Positions 10,012 to 22,352 of a stretch of DNA of 40,612 nucleotides are shown piece after piece. The position numbers and the translations under genes were made by a program. Each line of letters opens with the position of its first letter. The stretch's first letter is position 1. Below the pieces are notes generated by a model. That model was not told the origin of the DNA. It saw only the letters and a program-made list of their open reading frames with translations, and searched no databases. This stretch comes from Candidatus Woesearchaeota archaeon (lineage in GTDB: Archaea > Nanobdellota > Nanobdellia > SCGC-AAA011-G17 > GW2011-AR17), in the NCBI GenBank assembly GCA_009691355.1, contig SICW01000001.1, forward strand, positions 1 to 40,612. Reading direction: 5' to 3'.

Positions 10012-10058
10012 TAATATTTAAATAGTTGTTTTGCATGAAATATTTTAGAGGTGATATT

Positions 10059-10385
10059 ATGGCAGTATCAAAAAAGAAAGATGATGATAGTAAAACATGG
10101 GCATTCCTAGGTGTTTTTCTCACGGTGATTGGATTTATTATTGTCCTTCTCACAAGAAAAGAAGACGAATATGCTATGTATTATGCAAAACATGGACTGA
10201 TTTTGTTTATTGGTTGGGTTGCATTTAGTCTCTTAGGAAGAGTTCCGGTTGTAGGATGGTATTTCTACATTGTTGGTGGTATCGCTCTGTTGATATTATG
10301 GGTTATGGCTTTTATTGGCGCTTTATCCGGAGAGAAAAAAAGGTTTTTGATTCTCACAGATCTTGCTGAGAAAATTAATCTTTAA
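10059..10385 (+). CDS. Small integral membrane protein (3 predicted TM helices)
   Basis: MAVSKKKDDDSKTWAFLGVFLTVIGFIIVLL... is followed by two further hydrophobic spans. A GGTGAT Shine-Dalgarno-like motif sits directly upstream of the ATG at 10059. Confidence 0.5.
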   Translation: MAVSKKKDDDSKTWAFLGVFLTVIGFIIVLLTRKEDEYAMYYAKHGLILFIGWVAFSLLGRVPVVGWYFYIVGGIALLILWVMAFIGALSGEKKRFLILTDLAEKINL

Positions 10386-15134: not shown

Positions 15135-16811
15135 TTGGCACAGACAACACTTCCAGGGGCAACAACAGGAAAGAAAGAGAGACATATTGCTGAAATCCTT
15201 GCAGAGAAACAACAATCCATTTCTATTTCAGAATTTTTTACAAAGAATAGACATCTCCTTGGCTTTGATAATCCCCGAAAAGCACTTCTTACTACGGTTA
15301 AAGAGATGGTAGATAACTCTTTAGATGCATGCCAGGAAATGAAAGTTCTTCCCGAAATTAAAGTTATTCTTGAAGAAACCAGCCCAGATAAATATAAGGT
15401 AACTGTAGAAGATAATGGGCCAGGAATTGTACGAAAACAAATACCTAATATTTTTGCAAAACTCTTGTATGGAAGCAAGTTCCATAGGCTAAAAATGAGT
15501 AGAGGTCAACAAGGAATTGGAGTCTCTGCATCTGTTCTTTATGGACAACTGACTACAGGAAAACCTGTACGTATTATTTCCAAAATTGGACCAACAGTAA
15601 AATCACATTATTTTGAACTTCATCTGAATACAAAAACAAACGAACCAGAAATTATGAAAGATGAAGAGAGAGAATGGGAAAATAAAGATCATGGAACAAA
15701 AGTACAAATAGAACTAGAAGGGAAATATCAACAAGGGAAATTAAGTGTTGATGAATTCTTACAGCTCACTTCTATTTCTAATCCTGAAGCAACTATTATT
15801 TACAAAGGGCCAAATGCTGAAGCAGTAGAGTTTACACGAGCAAGCAAGGATTTACCTCGAGAAGCAAAAGAAATCCAGCCTCATCCTTATGGAGTAGAAT
15901 TAGGAACACTCATGCGTATGCTTTTGGATACAAAATCTCCAAGCCTCCAAAGTTTTCTTCAGAACGATTTCTGTCGTGTGAGTGCTTCTGTTGCAAAAGA
16001 GATTTGTGACAAATCTGGCCTTGAAGAACGAATGAAACCTTCTTCTATTTCTAGAGATGAAGTGGAGAAAATATTCAATGCTATCAAACAGATAAAAATT
16101 ATGGCCCCGCCAACAGATTGCCTCTCTCCTATTGGAGAAGAACAAATGCTCAAAGGATTGAAAAAAGAAATTAATGCAGAGTTTTATGCTGCAGTTACAC
16201 GAGCACCTGTAGTCTATAGAGGATTTCCATTCCAATTAGAAGTGGCAATTGCCTATGGCGGAGATCTTCCTAAAGATGAATTTGCACGTGTGATCCGATA
16301 TGCAAACCGTGTACCATTGCAACATCAGCCTGGGGCATGTGCACTGACACGATCTATTATTCAAACAGCATGGAAAAACTATGGAATCTCACAATCTAAA
16401 GGAACATTACCTACTGGACCTATTGTTATCATGGTACATATGGCTTCTGTGTGGGTGCCATTTACATCCGAAAGTAAAGAGGCTGTTGCATCATACCCAG
16501 AGATTATCAAAGAAGTTCGATTAGCTATACAAGATGCTGGAAGAAAATTAGCTTCTTACATTCGAAAAAATGTCAGGGCGAAGGAACAGCAAGAGCGAAT
16601 AGGTTTATTTGAGAAGTATATCCCTGAATTAGCTGCATCACTTGCCACACTTACTGGAGAGAAAAAAAGTGAAATTGAAGAAGAGTTACTGAAGATATTA
16701 AAGAAAGAGTTAAAAGGATTACTTGTTGAAGTGAAAGAAGCAGAAAAAGAAGAAATTACCCCTGATGGCGTTGCGTATGGAGAAAAACAGAAGGGGTTAG
16801 ACAATGAGTAA
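15135..16811 (+). CDS. top6B: DNA topoisomerase VI subunit B
   Basis: It has Bergerat-fold motifs KEMVDNSLDA and VEDNGPGI, and ISISEFFTKNRHLLGFD near the N-terminus. Only a TTG (15135) is available upstream of the conserved N-terminus. Confidence 0.9.
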   Translation: MAQTTLPGATTGKKERHIAEILAEKQQSISISEFFTKNRHLLGFDNPRKALLTTVKEMVDNSLDACQEMKVLPEIKVILEETSPDKYKVTVEDNGPGIVRKQIPNIFAKLLYGSKFHRLKMSRGQQGIGVSASVLYGQLTTGKPVRIISKIGPTVKSHYFELHLNTKTNEPEIMKDEEREWENKDHGTKVQIELEGKYQQGKLSVDEFLQLTSISNPEATIIYKGPNAEAVEFTRASKDLPREAKEIQPHPYGVELGTLMRMLLDTKSPSLQSFLQNDFCRVSASVAKEICDKSGLEERMKPSSISRDEVEKIFNAIKQIKIMAPPTDCLSPIGEEQMLKGLKKEINAEFYAAVTRAPVVYRGFPFQLEVAIAYGGDLPKDEFARVIRYANRVPLQHQPGACALTRSIIQTAWKNYGISQSKGTLPTGPIVIMVHMASVWVPFTSESKEAVASYPEIIKEVRLAIQDAGRKLASYIRKNVRAKEQQERIGLFEKYIPELAASLATLTGEKKSEIEEELLKILKKELKGLLVEVKEAEKEEITPDGVAYGEKQKGLDNE

Positions 16812-17889
16812 AGAAGATTCAAAAAATGCATTGAAAGATCTTGGAGCAAAAATTGTGCACCAAGTGAAAAAAGGGAAGAACCCAGAAATGGTGTTTCCTC
16901 TGAGAAATTTAAGTAATATTGTGTATGATAAAAAGTCTAAAACTTTGAAACTAGGGAATAAAACCGGAACGAGAAGTTTCTTTAATGTTGCACACTCGAA
17001 GAAATTTTTGCAGACTGTGGAGGTTGCTTCTGTCATTAAAGATAAACTCTTAGATAGCGGAAAGCATTCTAGTCTGCGAGATGTGTTTTATATGGTTAAA
17101 AAGACTATTCCTGGAACTAAGGTTAATCTTGTTGATGATCAAACAGAGTCGGATAAAGCAATTGAAGATCTTGAAGTCATGACCGGAATCTCTCGAGAAG
17201 AAATGCATGTGAATGCAAATAAGAATGGGAGTGTCGCTGGAAAAGTTATTATTGAAGATAGAGGGGATACCATTGATTGGAGTAAGTTAGGTAGTGGAGG
17301 ATGGTCTATCCCATCAAATGTGGAAGAAATTACATTCAAAAAAGTTGATGCGAAGTATGTCTTGTACATGGAAAAGGCTGCTGTATGGGAAAGGTTAAAT
17401 GAAGATAAATATTGGCAAAAAAATGATGCTATTATTCTTGCATCTCAGGGGCAAACAACACGAGGTATTCGGAGACTGCTTCAAAGGCTTTATGAAGAAT
17501 ATAATCTCCCGATTTATGTCTGTTGTGATGGAGATATATATGGTGCATATATTTACTCTGTGATTAAGTATGGCTCTATTGCCCTTTCTCATGCTTCAGA
17601 AAGACTCACTATTCCTAGTGTAAGGTATATTGGAATTACTATGGATGATATAGAGAAATATGACTTAAAAAAACATTTTATTACTCTTGATGAAAAGGAC
17701 TATGCACGAATTAAACAAGTTTCTGAGTATGAATGGTTTAAAGATAATAAAGACTGGCAGAGACAGTTCAAGATGATGAAAGAGTTTAAAGCAAAAGTAG
17801 AAATTCAGGCTTTAAGTGCGCGAGGAATTAGTTTTATCTCTGAAGAATACTTGCCTAAAAAAATAAAGAATAAAGAATTTTTAGATTAA
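16804..17889 (+). CDS. top6A: DNA topoisomerase VI subunit A (Spo11 homolog)
   Basis: It overlaps top6B by 8 nt. It has the Toprim acidic cluster YVCCDGDIYGAYI and the LRDVFY catalytic-Tyr region. Confidence 0.9.
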   Translation: MSKEDSKNALKDLGAKIVHQVKKGKNPEMVFPLRNLSNIVYDKKSKTLKLGNKTGTRSFFNVAHSKKFLQTVEVASVIKDKLLDSGKHSSLRDVFYMVKKTIPGTKVNLVDDQTESDKAIEDLEVMTGISREEMHVNANKNGSVAGKVIIEDRGDTIDWSKLGSGGWSIPSNVEEITFKKVDAKYVLYMEKAAVWERLNEDKYWQKNDAIILASQGQTTRGIRRLLQRLYEEYNLPIYVCCDGDIYGAYIYSVIKYGSIALSHASERLTIPSVRYIGITMDDIEKYDLKKHFITLDEKDYARIKQVSEYEWFKDNKDWQRQFKMMKEFKAKVEIQALSARGISFISEEYLPKKIKNKEFLD

Positions 17890-20132
17890 GAGTAGATTAT
17901 ATTTCTTGCTTCAGGGGCTTCTCTATTCACTTCTCGAAGATCTTTGTAGATGGTTGAAGTAGATACACCATACACTGCTGCAAGGGATCTTACAAGCTCT
18001 GCTTTAGGCTTTCCTAAACCATATTGCAAAGATCTTTCCCAAACGTCAAACCTTCTGTCTTGCATTTCTCTGTGAAGCATTCCTTCACGTGTATCTGGAA
18101 GAGAATCTGTTTTTAGATCTTGAGCAGTGATTTTTTCATCTAAGCCTTCATTGACAAATCGAATTATTTCTTTTACTGTCATATAGGTTTCTCTATCCCT
18201 TCTCTCTCCCGCTTTCATGTAAAGATCTCGTGCAAGTTCAAGACGCTCTTCTCTTACAACAGAAGGATCAATACTATTAGATGTTGGTTCTCCACTATCT
18301 TGTGTTTGGTTGTACTGACGTGCAACATTGAGAATCACATCTCCCATTAATAATGGGTCTTCTACGAATGGAAGATCTCTTTCTATTTGACGAAGCTCAA
18401 AGTACTCTTGTGTGATTCTTCCTAGGCCGGGAAGTTCTGTACTTTCAAAATTATCGTGCACAATCCTTTCCAAAGATTCTTGTACTTCTTGGGGAAGAGG
18501 AGTTGAAATAAATTCTTTTGGTGCAGCTACAACCAAGGTATCAGCTCTGTAGACTACATTTCTTTTTCCATCTTTCATTCCTTCAGGAGAGAAATCTGCT
18601 CTATGCACAAGAGGAGAAGGATTCTTTTTGTGATCTAAGTTTGCATCAAGAACGTCTCTGGTTAGATCTATGATCGGAGCAACTTTATCCCTGTCTAATG
18701 ACCGAATATGGGTTGTGTTTGCAGATACAACAAGACTAACTTGTTCTGAAGCTAGCCATTGGGCAAGGTCATATAAGGCTTCTCTGTTCCATCCATTTTC
18801 GATCATCGCAGCTATATACTGAGATGTTCCTACACCTGGAAGAACAAATTTTATGCTAAGAGTATCATCAGAAGGATCTGCTCCATCATTAAGATTATAG
18901 GTAAAGATTCTTTCGTCTTCATCTTCTTTTCTTCTTCGACTAGGGAGGATAGCTTCTGCTAAAACGCCTCTTGCTGTATCTTTATCTTTAGGCTCTGCAC
19001 TTTTTACAATAGGACCTTCTACAGGAGCTTGTGCAACTTGTGTTTGTTCTATAGTGAGTTCTAAAGGAACTTCTGCATAAATAACATTTCTTGTTGGATC
19101 TTTTAATCCTTTAAGAGTCAATCTTTCTTTATAGACATCATCAGGATTTTGCTCTGCAATCACTTCTACAAGACCAAGGACTTTACGCAACTCCACTTTT
19201 GTTGCATGAGGCAAATCTCTTTGCGTTGCACGAAGCTTGGACTCTTGCCAACTTAAAGACATAGCTGCAAGATTTTCAAGACTATCATTTTGTGCAATAA
19301 CTGCAGCATAATTTGCAAGGCCAAGACCTTTGATAGGACGGATAGTAAGAGTATTATTTTCATACGTGAATATCTTTTGTGACTTACCAGCTACTGAGAT
19401 GGGTAACTCTGTCATTTCAGGAAGAGGTTCTTCAATATGGACTCTTGTTTCTGGAAGAGGAAGGGGAGATTCAGCTACAATAGGCTCTGGTTTATGAGAA
19501 GCATTATAATTAAGAAAACTGGTTACTACTCCACATCCGATTATAGCTGCTCCTTGTATAGCAAGGCGAGTACCAAGAATTATACCTGTAGGCAAATAAC
19601 TTGGAGATGGAGATCTTTTTGGAACGGATGTAAAAGGAAGAGGAGATTCTTTAACCACTTTAGGCTCTTTTGGAACATAAGGAAGGGGTGCAGCTGGATC
19701 TTCTTCTGCAAGTGCTGGTAAAGGTTCATTATCAGTTGCTCCGCTTGCCCCAGGTAGAACATCTACTCTTCCGGTTGAGCCTACAACAATAGTATCTCTT
19801 TGATATGTTGGGGCATCTTGTACGCGATCAGAGCCACCCAAGGCAAGAAGACCATTATCTACAACTTGAGGTCCATCAGGATCAGTATGCACTTCTCTAG
19901 GATGGACGTGATATACAGCAATTTGCATTGCTCTGCTACCATCACTAGAAGGTACAAGCCTTTTTCCAAGAACAAGGTCTTCTGATTGGAGATGTACTTC
20001 AGCTTTTCCCATTAATAGCTTTATAGCCATGGGAGTCATACCATCTGTTCTTAATTTCTGTTTTAATGCAGGAATATCTCCTCCAGTTCTCATTTGGTGT
20101 ACAACTTCATCTAACACTTTATTATCAGTCAT
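17886..20132 (-). CDS. Large orphan single-pass membrane protein with internal duplication and C-terminal helix-turn-helix
   Basis: 748 aa. A TM helix spans about aa 181-206 (GIILGTRLAIQGAAIIGCGVVTSFL). There are Pro-rich EPLP/SPLP linkers and two homologous modules (aa ~254-357 and ~409-535). The C-terminal LVRSLAAVYGVSTSTIYKDLREV looks like an HTH. Confidence 0.6.
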   Translation of the reverse strand: MTDNKVLDEVVHQMRTGGDIPALKQKLRTDGMTPMAIKLLMGKAEVHLQSEDLVLGKRLVPSSDGSRAMQIAVYHVHPREVHTDPDGPQVVDNGLLALGGSDRVQDAPTYQRDTIVVGSTGRVDVLPGASGATDNEPLPALAEEDPAAPLPYVPKEPKVVKESPLPFTSVPKRSPSPSYLPTGIILGTRLAIQGAAIIGCGVVTSFLNYNASHKPEPIVAESPLPLPETRVHIEEPLPEMTELPISVAGKSQKIFTYENNTLTIRPIKGLGLANYAAVIAQNDSLENLAAMSLSWQESKLRATQRDLPHATKVELRKVLGLVEVIAEQNPDDVYKERLTLKGLKDPTRNVIYAEVPLELTIEQTQVAQAPVEGPIVKSAEPKDKDTARGVLAEAILPSRRRKEDEDERIFTYNLNDGADPSDDTLSIKFVLPGVGTSQYIAAMIENGWNREALYDLAQWLASEQVSLVVSANTTHIRSLDRDKVAPIIDLTRDVLDANLDHKKNPSPLVHRADFSPEGMKDGKRNVVYRADTLVVAAPKEFISTPLPQEVQESLERIVHDNFESTELPGLGRITQEYFELRQIERDLPFVEDPLLMGDVILNVARQYNQTQDSGEPTSNSIDPSVVREERLELARDLYMKAGERRDRETYMTVKEIIRFVNEGLDEKITAQDLKTDSLPDTREGMLHREMQDRRFDVWERSLQYGLGKPKAELVRSLAAVYGVSTSTIYKDLREVNREAPEARNIIYS

Positions 20133-20255
20133 TTTGAATATCCTTTATTTAGGTTATAACTCTGGAGGGACTAATTTTAGTATATAAAGGTTTTGGTTTT
20201 GTTTTTTACAGCTTTTTGTTGCATTTTTTTAGGCCATTTTCTCAGTGAGTAATAG

Positions 20256-20268
20256 AAATATATTTAAA
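20256..20268 (+). promoter_or_regulatory. TATA-like box for tRNA-Asn
   Basis: AAATATATTTAAA ends 26 nt upstream of the mature tRNA 5' end. Confidence 0.4.
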
Positions 20269-20319
20269 GTGTCCAAAACTTTTAGCATTTTACGCCCTGG
20301 TAGCTCAGCGGTGGAGCAC

Positions 20320-20350
20320 TTTTAGAAATATTTGTGTTTCTAGAGCTTAG
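20320..20350 (+). other. tRNA-Asn intron 1 (31 nt, position 27/28, non-canonical)
   Basis: The BHB-like fold has a central helix GAGC(20314-17)/GCTT(20345-48). The 3-nt bulges are AC|T and AG|G. The inner 8-bp helix is TTTAGAAA/TTTCTAGA. Confidence 0.7.
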
Positions 20351-20360
20351 GCGGCTGTTA

Positions 20361-20387
20361 ACTCAGCACAATACTGCTGGACTAGAT
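20361..20387 (+). other. tRNA-Asn intron 2 (27 nt, canonical position 37/38)
   Basis: The bulges are TA|A and AT|A. The central helix CTGT/CTAG pairs at 3 of 4 positions. The inner helix is TCAGCA/TGCTGG. Confidence 0.65.
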
Positions 20388-20604
20388 ACCGCGCGGTCGG
20401 CGGTTCGATCCCGTCCCAGGGCGTATTTTTCTTTTTTTACACATTTCTTCTACAGACCCTATGTATAACTTACCATTAAGAATTGCAAGCCTTTCTACAG
20501 TTGTTGAATGAGAAATGTATTTCTTATACTCTTGCCATAGTTTTGGGTTTTTTATTCTCATTTTGGGATACTTTCTTAGTAATAAAAATAGATTATAAGG
20601 TTGG

Positions 20605-20629
20605 CGCGGGGGCGTGCCGGGTGTCCAAG
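20605..20629 (+). repeat. GC-rich 25-nt element, copy 1
   Basis: CGCGGGGGCGTGCCGGGTGTCCAAG matches copy 2 at 20 of 25 positions. A TTATA sits 7 nt upstream in both copies. Confidence 0.6.
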
Positions 20630-20640
20630 CTTTCAAAAAG

Positions 20641-20650
20641 TTTTATAAAG
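20641..20650 (+). promoter_or_regulatory. TATA-like box for tRNA-Ile
   Basis: TTTTATAAAG ends 26 nt upstream of the mature tRNA 5' end. Confidence 0.4.
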
Positions 20651-20704
20651 CTCCACAAATTTCAAATTCTATAACGGGCCCGTAGCTCAGCCTGGCTGGA
20701 GCAC

Positions 20705-20726
20705 TAGATCCAAAAGATCTGCTCAT
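20705..20726 (+). other. tRNA-Ile intron 1 (22 nt, position 27/28, non-canonical)
   Basis: The central helix GAGC(20699-702)/GCTC(20721-24) is perfect. The bulges are AC|T and AT|T. The inner helix is AGATC/GATCT with loop CAAAA. Confidence 0.7.
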
Positions 20727-20736
20727 TCGACTGATA

Positions 20737-20748
20737 ACAAAGTCAGGT
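20737..20748 (+). other. tRNA-Ile intron 2 (12 nt, canonical position 37/38)
   Basis: The central helix CTGA(20731-34)/TCAG(20743-46) is perfect. The bulges are TA|A and GT|A. The inner loop is minimal. Confidence 0.65.
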
Positions 20749-20795
20749 ATCGAGAGGTCCTGCGTTCAAATCGCAGCGGGCCCATTTATTTTTTC

Positions 20796-22352
20796 TTAGA
20801 AAAACTCTGCATACAACTTATTTACAGTACGACCAATATTATTTTCATTCACCGCAACAGTAATATTACTTGGTACTCGATGTGGACCAAAATATTGCAA
20901 GCCATTTCTGGTCACAGAAAGTGTATCTGGTGAAATCCTTTCTTGAAGATAGCTACACATATTCCTTATCTCTTCAGAAAGACCATGTGCACTCGTCCCT
21001 ATAGAAATTGAATCAATCGTTGTAGAAATTCCCGTGATAGGAGCGCCTACACCAGCAAAACATTTCATCACTTCTTGTGCAACGCCAGACTCACTGTTCA
21101 TTCCAAAACGTTCAATATGATAAATGGTTGTGCTGGGAACACGACCACCAAGGATAGGCCCGTATCTTGCATTTGCTTGTCCATCGAGTACTTGTATAAT
21201 TCTATCCTGCAGAGTTATTGGACCTGTAATGCCTTCTCCCACAATAGAAACAAGTGCTTGCCTTTCATGCGTCGCGCTCATATTATATCTTGCCCCAAGC
21301 ACTGCTTCTATATCTGATGCTGCGGGTTTTTCTAATTCTGATTCTTCAAAGGCAATAGATACACGACCATTCTCTGTTCCAATCATATCAATAGATATTG
21401 CCCTTGTAGAAAAAACCTCAAAAAGATCTTGGAAAAATTGAGGATCATCTTCTCTTTGCAAAGTGTAGAGTACAAAGCCTTTTTTTGCGGCGATCCCCAC
21501 CAAGGGTTGCTCTGTACATATTCTTTCACGTACAATTCTTGTTCCAGGATCCTGAGGATGAAAAAGTGAACGAACTGTAATAGGCACGCCAGCTTTTCTT
21601 GACCAAGACATTGCTTCTTCTTGTAAGACTGTACTTCCTCCATAGGCTAATTCACGAAGTTCACGATATGTAAGAATGCGCATGACTGTTGCAGTAGGGA
21701 CATAGCGTGGGTCTGCTGCACAAATTCCAGATTCTTCTTTTAAGTTGACGTACTCAGATGCACGAAGCGTTGCTGCAAGCACATCTGCTGTGAGATCAGA
21801 ACCTCCACTGGGTAAAACAATGGTTCTCCCTTCTTGACTTCTCCCGTAGAAACCGCCAATGACATAGACGTCATCAGATCCATCAAATGGTGTTCTATGT
21901 ACTCCAATGACTTTCCCACTTCTAGAATTGTTTGTTGTTATAAGTGCATCACGTGCATCCACCCAACGGGAGGCTAGCCCACATATATTGAAATAACGAT
22001 TCACTTGCCATGCTTGTGCATGTTCTCCAAGAAAAAGAATATCATCTTCACTTGTTGATCTTGCAAAGCCTTCATCAAGAATATTCCTCTCAAACTTGAT
22101 ACCCAAAGGAGTAGCTATAGATTCATACATTGCTATAATATTTTCTGCCGTGTCTTCTCCCTTTGCTTTTCTTCGAAGAAGTTCGGTAACACGGTTGTCT
22201 CTTCTCTCTCCTTCACGTGCAGGTGCAGAAACAACAAGAACAACTTTGTTTCCAGCATGGACTTCTTTTCTTACTTCTGCTTCTAGAAGTTGGTATCCTT
22301 GCGCAGAACCAGTAGACATTCCCCCAGACTTGAGAACCTTAATAGGTTTCAT
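20796..22352 (-). CDS. Aspartate kinase-like protein (amino-acid kinase domain plus ACT-type C-terminal region)
   Basis: It has KVLKSGGMS (compare KFGGTS), VVLVVSAP, LPSGGSDLTADVLAATL, GICAADPRYVP and LAYGGSTVLQ. The C-terminal part is about 200 aa with ACT-like repeats. It overlaps lysA by 14 nt. Confidence 0.7.
   Translation of the reverse strand: MKPIKVLKSGGMSTGSAQGYQLLEAEVRKEVHAGNKVVLVVSAPAREGERRDNRVTELLRRKAKGEDTAENIIAMYESIATPLGIKFERNILDEGFARSTSEDDILFLGEHAQAWQVNRYFNICGLASRWVDARDALITTNNSRSGKVIGVHRTPFDGSDDVYVIGGFYGRSQEGRTIVLPSGGSDLTADVLAATLRASEYVNLKEESGICAADPRYVPTATVMRILTYRELRELAYGGSTVLQEEAMSWSRKAGVPITVRSLFHPQDPGTRIVRERICTEQPLVGIAAKKGFVLYTLQREDDPQFFQDLFEVFSTRAISIDMIGTENGRVSIAFEESELEKPAASDIEAVLGARYNMSATHERQALVSIVGEGITGPITLQDRIIQVLDGQANARYGPILGGRVPSTTIYHIERFGMNSESGVAQEVMKCFAGVGAPITGISTTIDSISIGTSAHGLSEEIRNMCSYLQERISPDTLSVTRNGLQYFGPHRVPSNITVAVNENNIGRTVNKLYAEFF

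Follow-up and report, generated by a model that had tools for sequence, protein, structure and literature searches.

A fast-evolving single-span membrane protein with paired modules and a C-terminal helix-turn-helix beside the topoisomerase VI gene of a Woesearchaeota-like archaeon

The 40,612-nt stretch of DNA analysed here (the window), from a Candidatus Woesearchaeota archaeon, raises the question of what a protein with a single transmembrane (TM) helix and a C-terminal helix-turn-helix (HTH) of DNA-binding type may do, and how its gene came to lie between top6A, encoding topoisomerase VI subunit A, and a pair of tRNA genes. The gene encodes a protein of 748 amino acids, to which all residue numbers below refer (coordinates in Table 1); an earlier prediction made from the DNA letters alone (the original prediction) had taken it for an orphan on acquired DNA. 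To our knowledge, almost nothing is known about the surface proteins of DPANN archaea, which depend on other cells. The results described below lead us to a tentative assignment, drawn from sequence, structural models, and analogy: the protein may be a bitopic envelope tether or adhesin that attaches to a surface polymer through its ectodomain.

Domain anatomy and the exchange of modules for LysM

The 748-aa open reading frame (ORF) is real, starts with ATG, upstream of which only four further codons are open, and is single-copy, the genome holding no other match to the protein. As originally described, a soluble N-terminal region is followed by the sole segment of TM-grade hydrophobicity, and all five Pro-rich motifs were found in the translation. 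A full-length AlphaFold2 (AF2) run with 12 aligned sequences gave confident domains (residues 1-51, 189-210, 251-360, 405-540, and 570-745) with disorder between them. Foldseek searches with this model returned nothing significant; sigma-factor chains recurred at E values of ~1-5 and were judged to be noise of long helical alignments. Searches against Pfam, NCBIfam, PHROGs, and PADLOC with the protein, its relatives, and the separate domains yielded sub-threshold HTH matches only. Profile searches of the PDB (whole family, module, C-terminal region, and N-terminal bundle) gave only weak HTH matches and designed miniproteins, the latter being three-helix proteins and the only matches of the N-terminal bundle profile.

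The internal duplication proposed for the protein was borne out. Module 1 and module 2 share 25% identity over 125 columns (BLASTP, E = 4e-7), the family profile matches them at E values of 6e-41 and 3e-36, respectively, and a DNA repeat of 54 nt (18556-18609 versus 19084-19137) is still 70% identical. The module is an autonomous domain that every full-length family member carries once or twice. When module 1 was modelled alone (AF2, 15 sequences), the predicted local distance difference test (pLDDT) score was 90 and the predicted template modelling (pTM) score 0.84, and the model consisted of a beta-hairpin, four helices, and a closing strand. Foldseek identified no fold neighbour of this model in the PDB (best E = 3.5, template modelling score ≤0.27) or in BFVD (best E = 0.4), and the module sequence profiles matched no entry of the PDB or Pfam. 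Within the limits of these libraries, the module is predicted to be a new alpha/beta domain without fold relative in the PDB or BFVD. Compact, confidently modelled, and without structural neighbour, it has a structure of interest in itself. Two weak matches of the module to other proteins were discarded. The first, in a protein of genome G016, turned out to be YcaO; matches at such a level thus rest on a short GLKD..NV..VP motif and were not taken as evidence. The second, in a 941-aa protein of genome G005 with an N-terminus that reads like a signal peptide, was not counted either.

The positional orthologs in the sister genus g12 contain two LysM domains (39.2 and 52.8 bits, Pfam cut-off 20.9) at the place where the modules sit in the window protein. 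They are built of a soluble N-terminus, a strongly basic flank, the TM helix, the two LysM domains, a helical region, and an HTH motif 'YGISNSTIYRDLKRNPL'. Recognised wall- or glycan-binding domains were found by Pfam only in these g12 orthologs and not in the window protein. LysM (PF01476) matched none of 23 module sequences even at E values up to 10, and hhalign comparison of the module profile with the LysM domains of the orthologs gave a probability of 1.4% over 11 columns. The latter value leaves unsupported a reading of the module as LysM with a helical insertion, which had been considered from a motif pattern and a BFVD match to LysM/BON (E = 6). Since module and LysM show no homology, the exchange represents a domain replacement rather than a divergent LysM. 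LysM is typically extracytoplasmic and wall-binding, and its occurrence in the g12 orthologs makes surface-polymer binding the most likely role of the modules as well. The analogy suggests that the modules do a LysM-like job in the compartment usual for LysM.

With a mean identity of 39%, the helical unit behind the modules is better conserved than any other part of the protein, and the disordered region of residues 52-180 together with the linkers is the least conserved (12-22% identity). Residues Y607, N608, R630, A634, L637, Y638, M651, N661, and G663 are invariant in the helical unit, and the invariant arginines of the conserved C-terminal region are R630, R682, and R693. The helical unit had no match in the PDB or Pfam.

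For the segment that follows, AF2 placed helices at residues 682-704, 710-721, and 725-738 with a 3-residue turn (pLDDT 74-90). The best HTH match of the window protein was SpoIIID (15.5 bits, cut-off 27, E = 0.019); the best scores among the relatives were 22.4 for HTH_38 (cut-off 27) and 21.0 for HTH_7 (cut-off 23.8). Sub-threshold matches to HTH families (HTH_11, DeoR, SpoIIID, HTH_23/28, HTH_7, or Mor) occurred in 7 of 17 members, and no member reached a curated Pfam HTH threshold. In the PDB, the C-terminal profile matched HTH proteins only (SpoIIID, 0.008; SETMAR, 0.036; Tn3 resolvase, 0.14). In the model and in these profile comparisons, the C-terminal segment folds and reads as an HTH below curated thresholds, in line with the HTH-like C-terminus originally proposed. 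According to the family alignments, the tail motif listed in Table 1 is seen right behind the HTH in most members.

Predicted membrane topology and possible functions

The Kyte-Doolittle maximum of the protein was 1.68 at the TM segment, compared with 1.08 for the next best segment elsewhere, and the TM segment is present in 20 of 20 family members. In the 15-residue flanks of this segment, the 20 members together have 64 Lys and Arg residues on the N-terminal side and 20 on the C-terminal side; the bias toward the N-terminal side is found in 18 members, with one tie and one reversal, a count that is not a statistical test as the members are related. The N-terminal side of the TM helix comprises 66-380 residues and includes a folded domain, and neither a signal peptide nor a second hydrophobic segment was found among the members. 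In membrane protein biogenesis, a long folded N-terminal segment without signal peptide is unlikely to be translocated. The positive-inside bias and the LysM-containing orthologs point to an N-in/C-out orientation, in which everything from the stalk through the modules and helical unit to the HTH is predicted to lie outside the cell. The Pro-rich stalks and the acidity of the ectodomain so defined (pI of about 5) also speak for this orientation.

As an envelope tether or adhesin, the protein would keep its three-helix domain and disordered tail in the cytoplasm and use the Gly/Ala-rich helix as membrane anchor. Outside, a Pro-rich stalk would bear the two modules, followed by the helical unit and the terminal HTH. 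The modules would bind a cell-surface polymer, possibly a glycan, either from the envelope of the archaeon itself or from a host cell, and the protein would tether the membrane to that polymer or act as an adhesin. At the outer tip, the helical unit and HTH could bind a further partner, either nucleic acid or protein. Rapid sequence change and the swapping of domains are in keeping with a protein exposed to another cell or to an envelope that varies; confinement to one lineage, evolution several times faster than that of the neighbours, and the swap of the module for LysM are hallmarks of an interface with an organism or envelope. If the topology prediction is true, the HTH would be extracytoplasmic and a candidate for DNA capture or host contact.

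Several points weigh against this assignment. The topology is predicted from the positive-inside rule and from domain analogy, and we know of no established precedent for an HTH outside the cell. The functional equivalence of module and LysM is argued from their position, homology being undetectable by hhalign, and the rest of the genome, at 78% completeness, yielded no LysM. Furthermore, conservation is highest in the HTH and the helical unit and lowest on the N-terminal side, a pattern that fits a cytoplasmic C-terminus and an exposed N-terminus equally well. Finally, the helical C-terminal region is rich in charges, as are cytoplasmic proteins that bind nucleic acids.

The conservation pattern and the charged, helical C-terminal region would also suit an N-out/C-in membrane-tethered DNA-binding protein, with the HTH on the chromosome as a one-component regulator or a chromosome-membrane tether, and with the modules or LysM domains as cytoplasmic ligand sensors. 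The HTH signatures (SpoIIID, resolvase HTH_7, HTH_23/28/38, DeoR, and HTH_11) speak for this explanation, as does the topoisomerase VI gene neighbourhood kept across genera. However, the positive-inside rule opposes such an orientation in 18 of 20 members, it would require the unlikely translocation of a folded N-terminal side of 66-380 residues without signal peptide, and the LysM domains of the g12 orthologs would need to be cytoplasmic. Moreover, the gene is convergent to top6A and hence not co-transcribed with it. On balance, we consider this explanation, which would mean that the charge rule misleads here, rather unlikely, though it is the strongest of the alternatives. The original prediction had drawn attention to a membrane-tethered protein with a DNA-binding-type motif as an unusual combination; the combination itself is upheld, but the cytoplasmic HTH that it implied is opposed by the topology evidence, which puts the HTH outside. 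Should the C-terminus be cytoplasmic, the protein would represent a new type of membrane-tethered DNA-binding protein conserved beside topoisomerase VI.

Improbable in our view, though a special case of the tether, is a ComEA-like surface receptor for extracellular or host DNA that would serve uptake or nucleotide scavenging and be held in the envelope by the modules. It shares the topology evidence of the tether and gains from an HTH of DNA-binding type, from the invariant R630, R682, and R693, and from the small genome (662 kb, 78% complete); small DPANN genomes may point to a dependence on external nucleotides. Against it, ComEC (PF03772) was not found in this 78%-complete genome, the ectodomain is acidic overall, no nuclease or transporter partner is encoded nearby, and the DNA receptors known to us use helix-hairpin-helix or pilin folds rather than an HTH. 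The broader notion of an HTH displayed outside on a wall-binding stalk, which would either receive DNA from the environment or a host or be inserted into the host across the contact zone, appears similarly improbable. If an outward DNA receptor were true, it would offer genome-reduced DPANN archaea an undescribed route to nucleic-acid capture or host interference, and a new ligand-binding fold would have replaced LysM.

Compared with known systems, the window protein, as a tether or adhesin, would by analogy work most like the bacterial bitopic LysM/SPOR wall-binders (YneA, DipM, FimV/HubP, FtsN, and DamX), and it is a member of none of the systems compared. With these bacterial proteins it has in common one TM helix, a Pro-rich linker, and tandem modules, and in the predicted topology it would also share their cytoplasmic N-terminus and the outer position of the modules. 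Unlike theirs, its module has neither detectable LysM homology nor a fold neighbour in the PDB or BFVD, it adds a helical unit and an HTH that are absent from those proteins, and it belongs to an archaeon. The HTH resembles those of SpoIIID, resolvases (HTH_7), and transposases (HTH_23/28/38) in geometry and in the motif G-V-S-x-S-T-I-Y-[KR]-D-L; in contrast to such simple HTH proteins, the domain here is sub-threshold, stands behind a TM helix, is predicted to be extracytoplasmic, and has no known DNA target. ComEA also has an N-terminal anchor and a domain of DNA-binding type that faces outward, as is predicted for the HTH here, but uses helix-hairpin-helix together with ComEC and lacks wall-binding modules and a cytoplasmic domain; no helix-hairpin-helix family was among the Pfam matches of the window protein and its relatives. 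ToxR/CadC, the archaeal ArnR, and RodZ also combine an HTH and a single TM helix in one polypeptide. Their HTH is N-terminal and cytoplasmic, whereas the one described here is C-terminal and predicted to be outside. The SPEARE proteins of Nanohaloarchaeota are also DPANN-specific and membrane-spanning, combine adhesion-type outer parts with a DNA-related domain, and have a proposed role at the symbiont-host interface (PMC6642349). They comprise 3,000-8,500 aa, keep their restriction-enzyme-like domain in the cytoplasm, and have adhesion domains of known types (PMC6642349). No sequence similarity links them to the 748-aa family.

Distribution, variation, and inheritance of the gene

Exhaustive HMMER searches among 1.84 billion representative proteins retrieved 19 proteins at E ≤ 1e-3, and the named records stem from metagenome-assembled genomes labelled Woesearchaeota or Nanoarchaeota, several of them groundwater-derived. 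In a profile survey of 240 genomes of the order, 36 of which belong to the taxonomic family of the window and 204 to 28 other families, the module profile matched 14 of the 36 own-family genomes and none of the 204 outside. The profile of the C-terminal region matched 16 of the 36 and one of the 204. The protein family is new and, by these profile searches, restricted to one family of Woesearchaeota-like DPANN archaea. Word-indexed searches with the whole protein, the family profile, and the LysM ortholog retrieved only the query itself or one to two close relatives and carry little weight, as low-complexity words swamp the index. The term orphan used in the original prediction holds with respect to such word-indexed databases only, whereas the exhaustive HMMER and genome searches revealed a small family. 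In the literature searched, no relevant work on a combination of LysM and HTH in Woesearchaeota was found.

Members of the family differ by gain and loss of domains and contain one to two modules, one to three helical units, and one to two N-terminal bundles, the bundle being duplicated in the long relatives. In a single-module subclade, the main gene and top6A are separated by a small second gene of 173-183 aa, which encodes a TM helix and a helical unit without HTH and appears to have arisen by duplication of part of the main gene. A 679-aa frame cut by the contig end (L074:837-2873; genome G024, genus g15) contains the helical unit and several SH3/KOW-like repeats (GDEVxV...G); neither the module nor LysM nor any Pfam match was found in it.

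A six-frame search of related genomes revealed orthologs in nine of the ten genomes of the same genus. In the tenth, top6A is absent, too, and the locus is thus simply not assembled there. Every inspected ortholog is convergent to top6A, with stops that usually touch or overlap; upstream of the orthologs, a tRNA-Ile/tRNA-Asn pair is followed by aspartokinase-like and diaminopimelate (DAP)-decarboxylase-like genes. With top6A as anchor, divergent positional orthologs were found beside it in the genera g4, g10, and g12, and unrelated genes in other genera. Identity between genomes amounts to 27-38% for the 748-aa gene, compared with 69-91% for top6A, top6B, and the DAP-decarboxylase-like gene, which identifies the former as a fast-evolving gene in a fixed position. 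The aspartokinase-like neighbour (20796-22352, minus strand) is also fast, with 48-54% identity versus 69-85% for the DAP-decarboxylase-like gene and 72-91% for top6A.

The GC content of the gene is 39.6% compared with 36.3% for the genome, so that the 40-48% originally counted by hand was too high. At third codon positions, the GC content (GC3) amounts to 20.2% and thus falls short of the genome mean, 25.9%. The mild GC excess stems from codon positions 1 and 2 and reflects the amino-acid composition of the protein, in which Pro, Arg, Ala, Val, and Asp are enriched and Lys, Ile, and Phe depleted. The tetranucleotide distance of the gene lies at the 96th percentile.

The gene is vertically inherited and rapidly diverging and does not represent acquired DNA, as had been assumed from its position beside tRNA genes; the homologs are single-copy, syntenic genes of the same lineage. 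Within the reach of the searches made, an origin as cargo of a virus or mobile element inserted beside tRNA-Asn is a very remote prospect: the two adjoining tRNA genes, the mildly raised GC content, the tetranucleotide distance, and the word-indexed search without homologs would fit it, but synteny is kept on both sides within the genus and the pairing with top6A recurs in four other genera, the GC excess has the origin given above, only short chance repeats were found when positions 17500-20900 were searched for att-like repeats, the interval contains no integrase, mobility gene, or other substantial ORF, and the phage and defence families of PHROG and PADLOC gave no match. No relative was found on viral contigs (plasmid collections were not searched), and where homologs sit beside the tRNA pair, they do so syntenically.

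Feature coordinates and neighbouring genes

Table 1. Features of the 748-aa gene, its surroundings, and the second gene of related loci. Positions are those of the window except where a locus label precedes them.
Feature	Residues	Position (nt)	Strand	Basis or remark
Whole gene, 748 aa + stop, ATG start		17886..20132	-	ORF listing
N-terminal three-helix bundle, predicted cytoplasmic	1-51	19980..20132	-	AF2 helices 2-15, 20-29, 34-51; pLDDT 75-88
Disordered Pro/Asp/Gly-rich region with NEPLP and ESPLPF motifs, K/R flank at TM end	52-180	19593..19979	-	pLDDT <40, without secondary structure
Sole TM helix, Gly/Ala-rich	181-210	19503..19592	-	Kyte-Doolittle; AF2 helix 189-210
Acidic Pro-rich stalk (ESPLPLPE, EEPLPE)	211-249	19386..19502	-	Translation; disordered in AF2 model
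Module 1, alpha/beta domain (predicted)	250-364	19041..19385	-	Family profile; AF2 of module alone
Inter-module linker, charged	365-404	18921..19040	-	pLDDT <40; alignable in only 2 of 7 relatives
Module 2, paralogous to module 1, two insertions	405-540	18513..18920	-	BLASTP versus module 1; family profile
Conserved helical unit	545-680	18093..18500	-	Motifs EYFELRQIERD, NVARQYN, REERLELARDLY, YMTVKEII..VNEG
Tri-helical HTH (predicted; RRFDVWERSL / LVRSLAAVYG / STSTIYKDLREV)	681-740	17913..18092	-	AF2; sub-threshold HTH matches
C-terminal tail	741-748	17889..17912	-	Family motif E-[AV]-P-[ED]-[PA] starts at residue 740
TATA-like box CTTTATATAC, putative promoter		20180..20189	-	48-57 nt 5' of ATG; read from sequence
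top6A (topoisomerase VI subunit A)		16804..17889	+	Convergent neighbour, overlapping stops
tRNA-Asn(GTT), intron-interrupted, divergent from gene		20293..20424	+	Intron-aware ARAGORN; Rfam 35.7 bits
tRNA-Ile(GAT), intron-interrupted		20676..20784	+	Intron-aware ARAGORN
Small second gene in relatives		L008:963-1490; L014:3014-3556; L017:5833-6384; L019:2083-2634

The stop codon of the gene overlaps the convergent stop of top6A in TTAA (17887-17889 = TAA), and the coordinates agree with the overlap originally noted. A TATA-like box similar to that upstream of the window gene occurs in the upstream regions of orthologs, and the box is the putative promoter of the gene. A conserved block 5' of the gene serves the divergent tRNA gene as promoter and was rejected as an operator of the 748-aa gene.

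The tRNA pair placed next to the gene by the original prediction exists, both genes being interrupted by introns. Neither default ARAGORN nor Rfam in gathering mode detected them, whereas ARAGORN with introns allowed and Rfam in E-value mode did; their identities were taken from orthologs, an intron-less one of which reads GTT (Asn), and six loci of which read GAT (Ile). The introns of the two tRNA genes vary between genomes, with none in L013, one short intron in L010 and L011, and more in the window. Relaxed ARAGORN additionally reported an intron-containing tRNA-Ala(CGC) at 10225-10380, within an ORF at 10026-10385; this ORF is kept as a protein (75% identity in L011), and the tRNA call is thus probably false.

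In two related loci (L013:8323-11451 and L019:3709-6837), top6B encodes 1042 aa instead of 558 aa, and in L056 (G011:C3) top6A lies in a 925-aa open frame and is split into two matching pieces. These enlarged frames suggest intein-type insertions. In genome G004, an extra ORF (L005:3850-4527) between the tRNA genes and the ortholog contains a LAGLIDADG-like motif (LAFLMGLHLGDGN) and looks, from this motif, like a homing-endonuclease gene.

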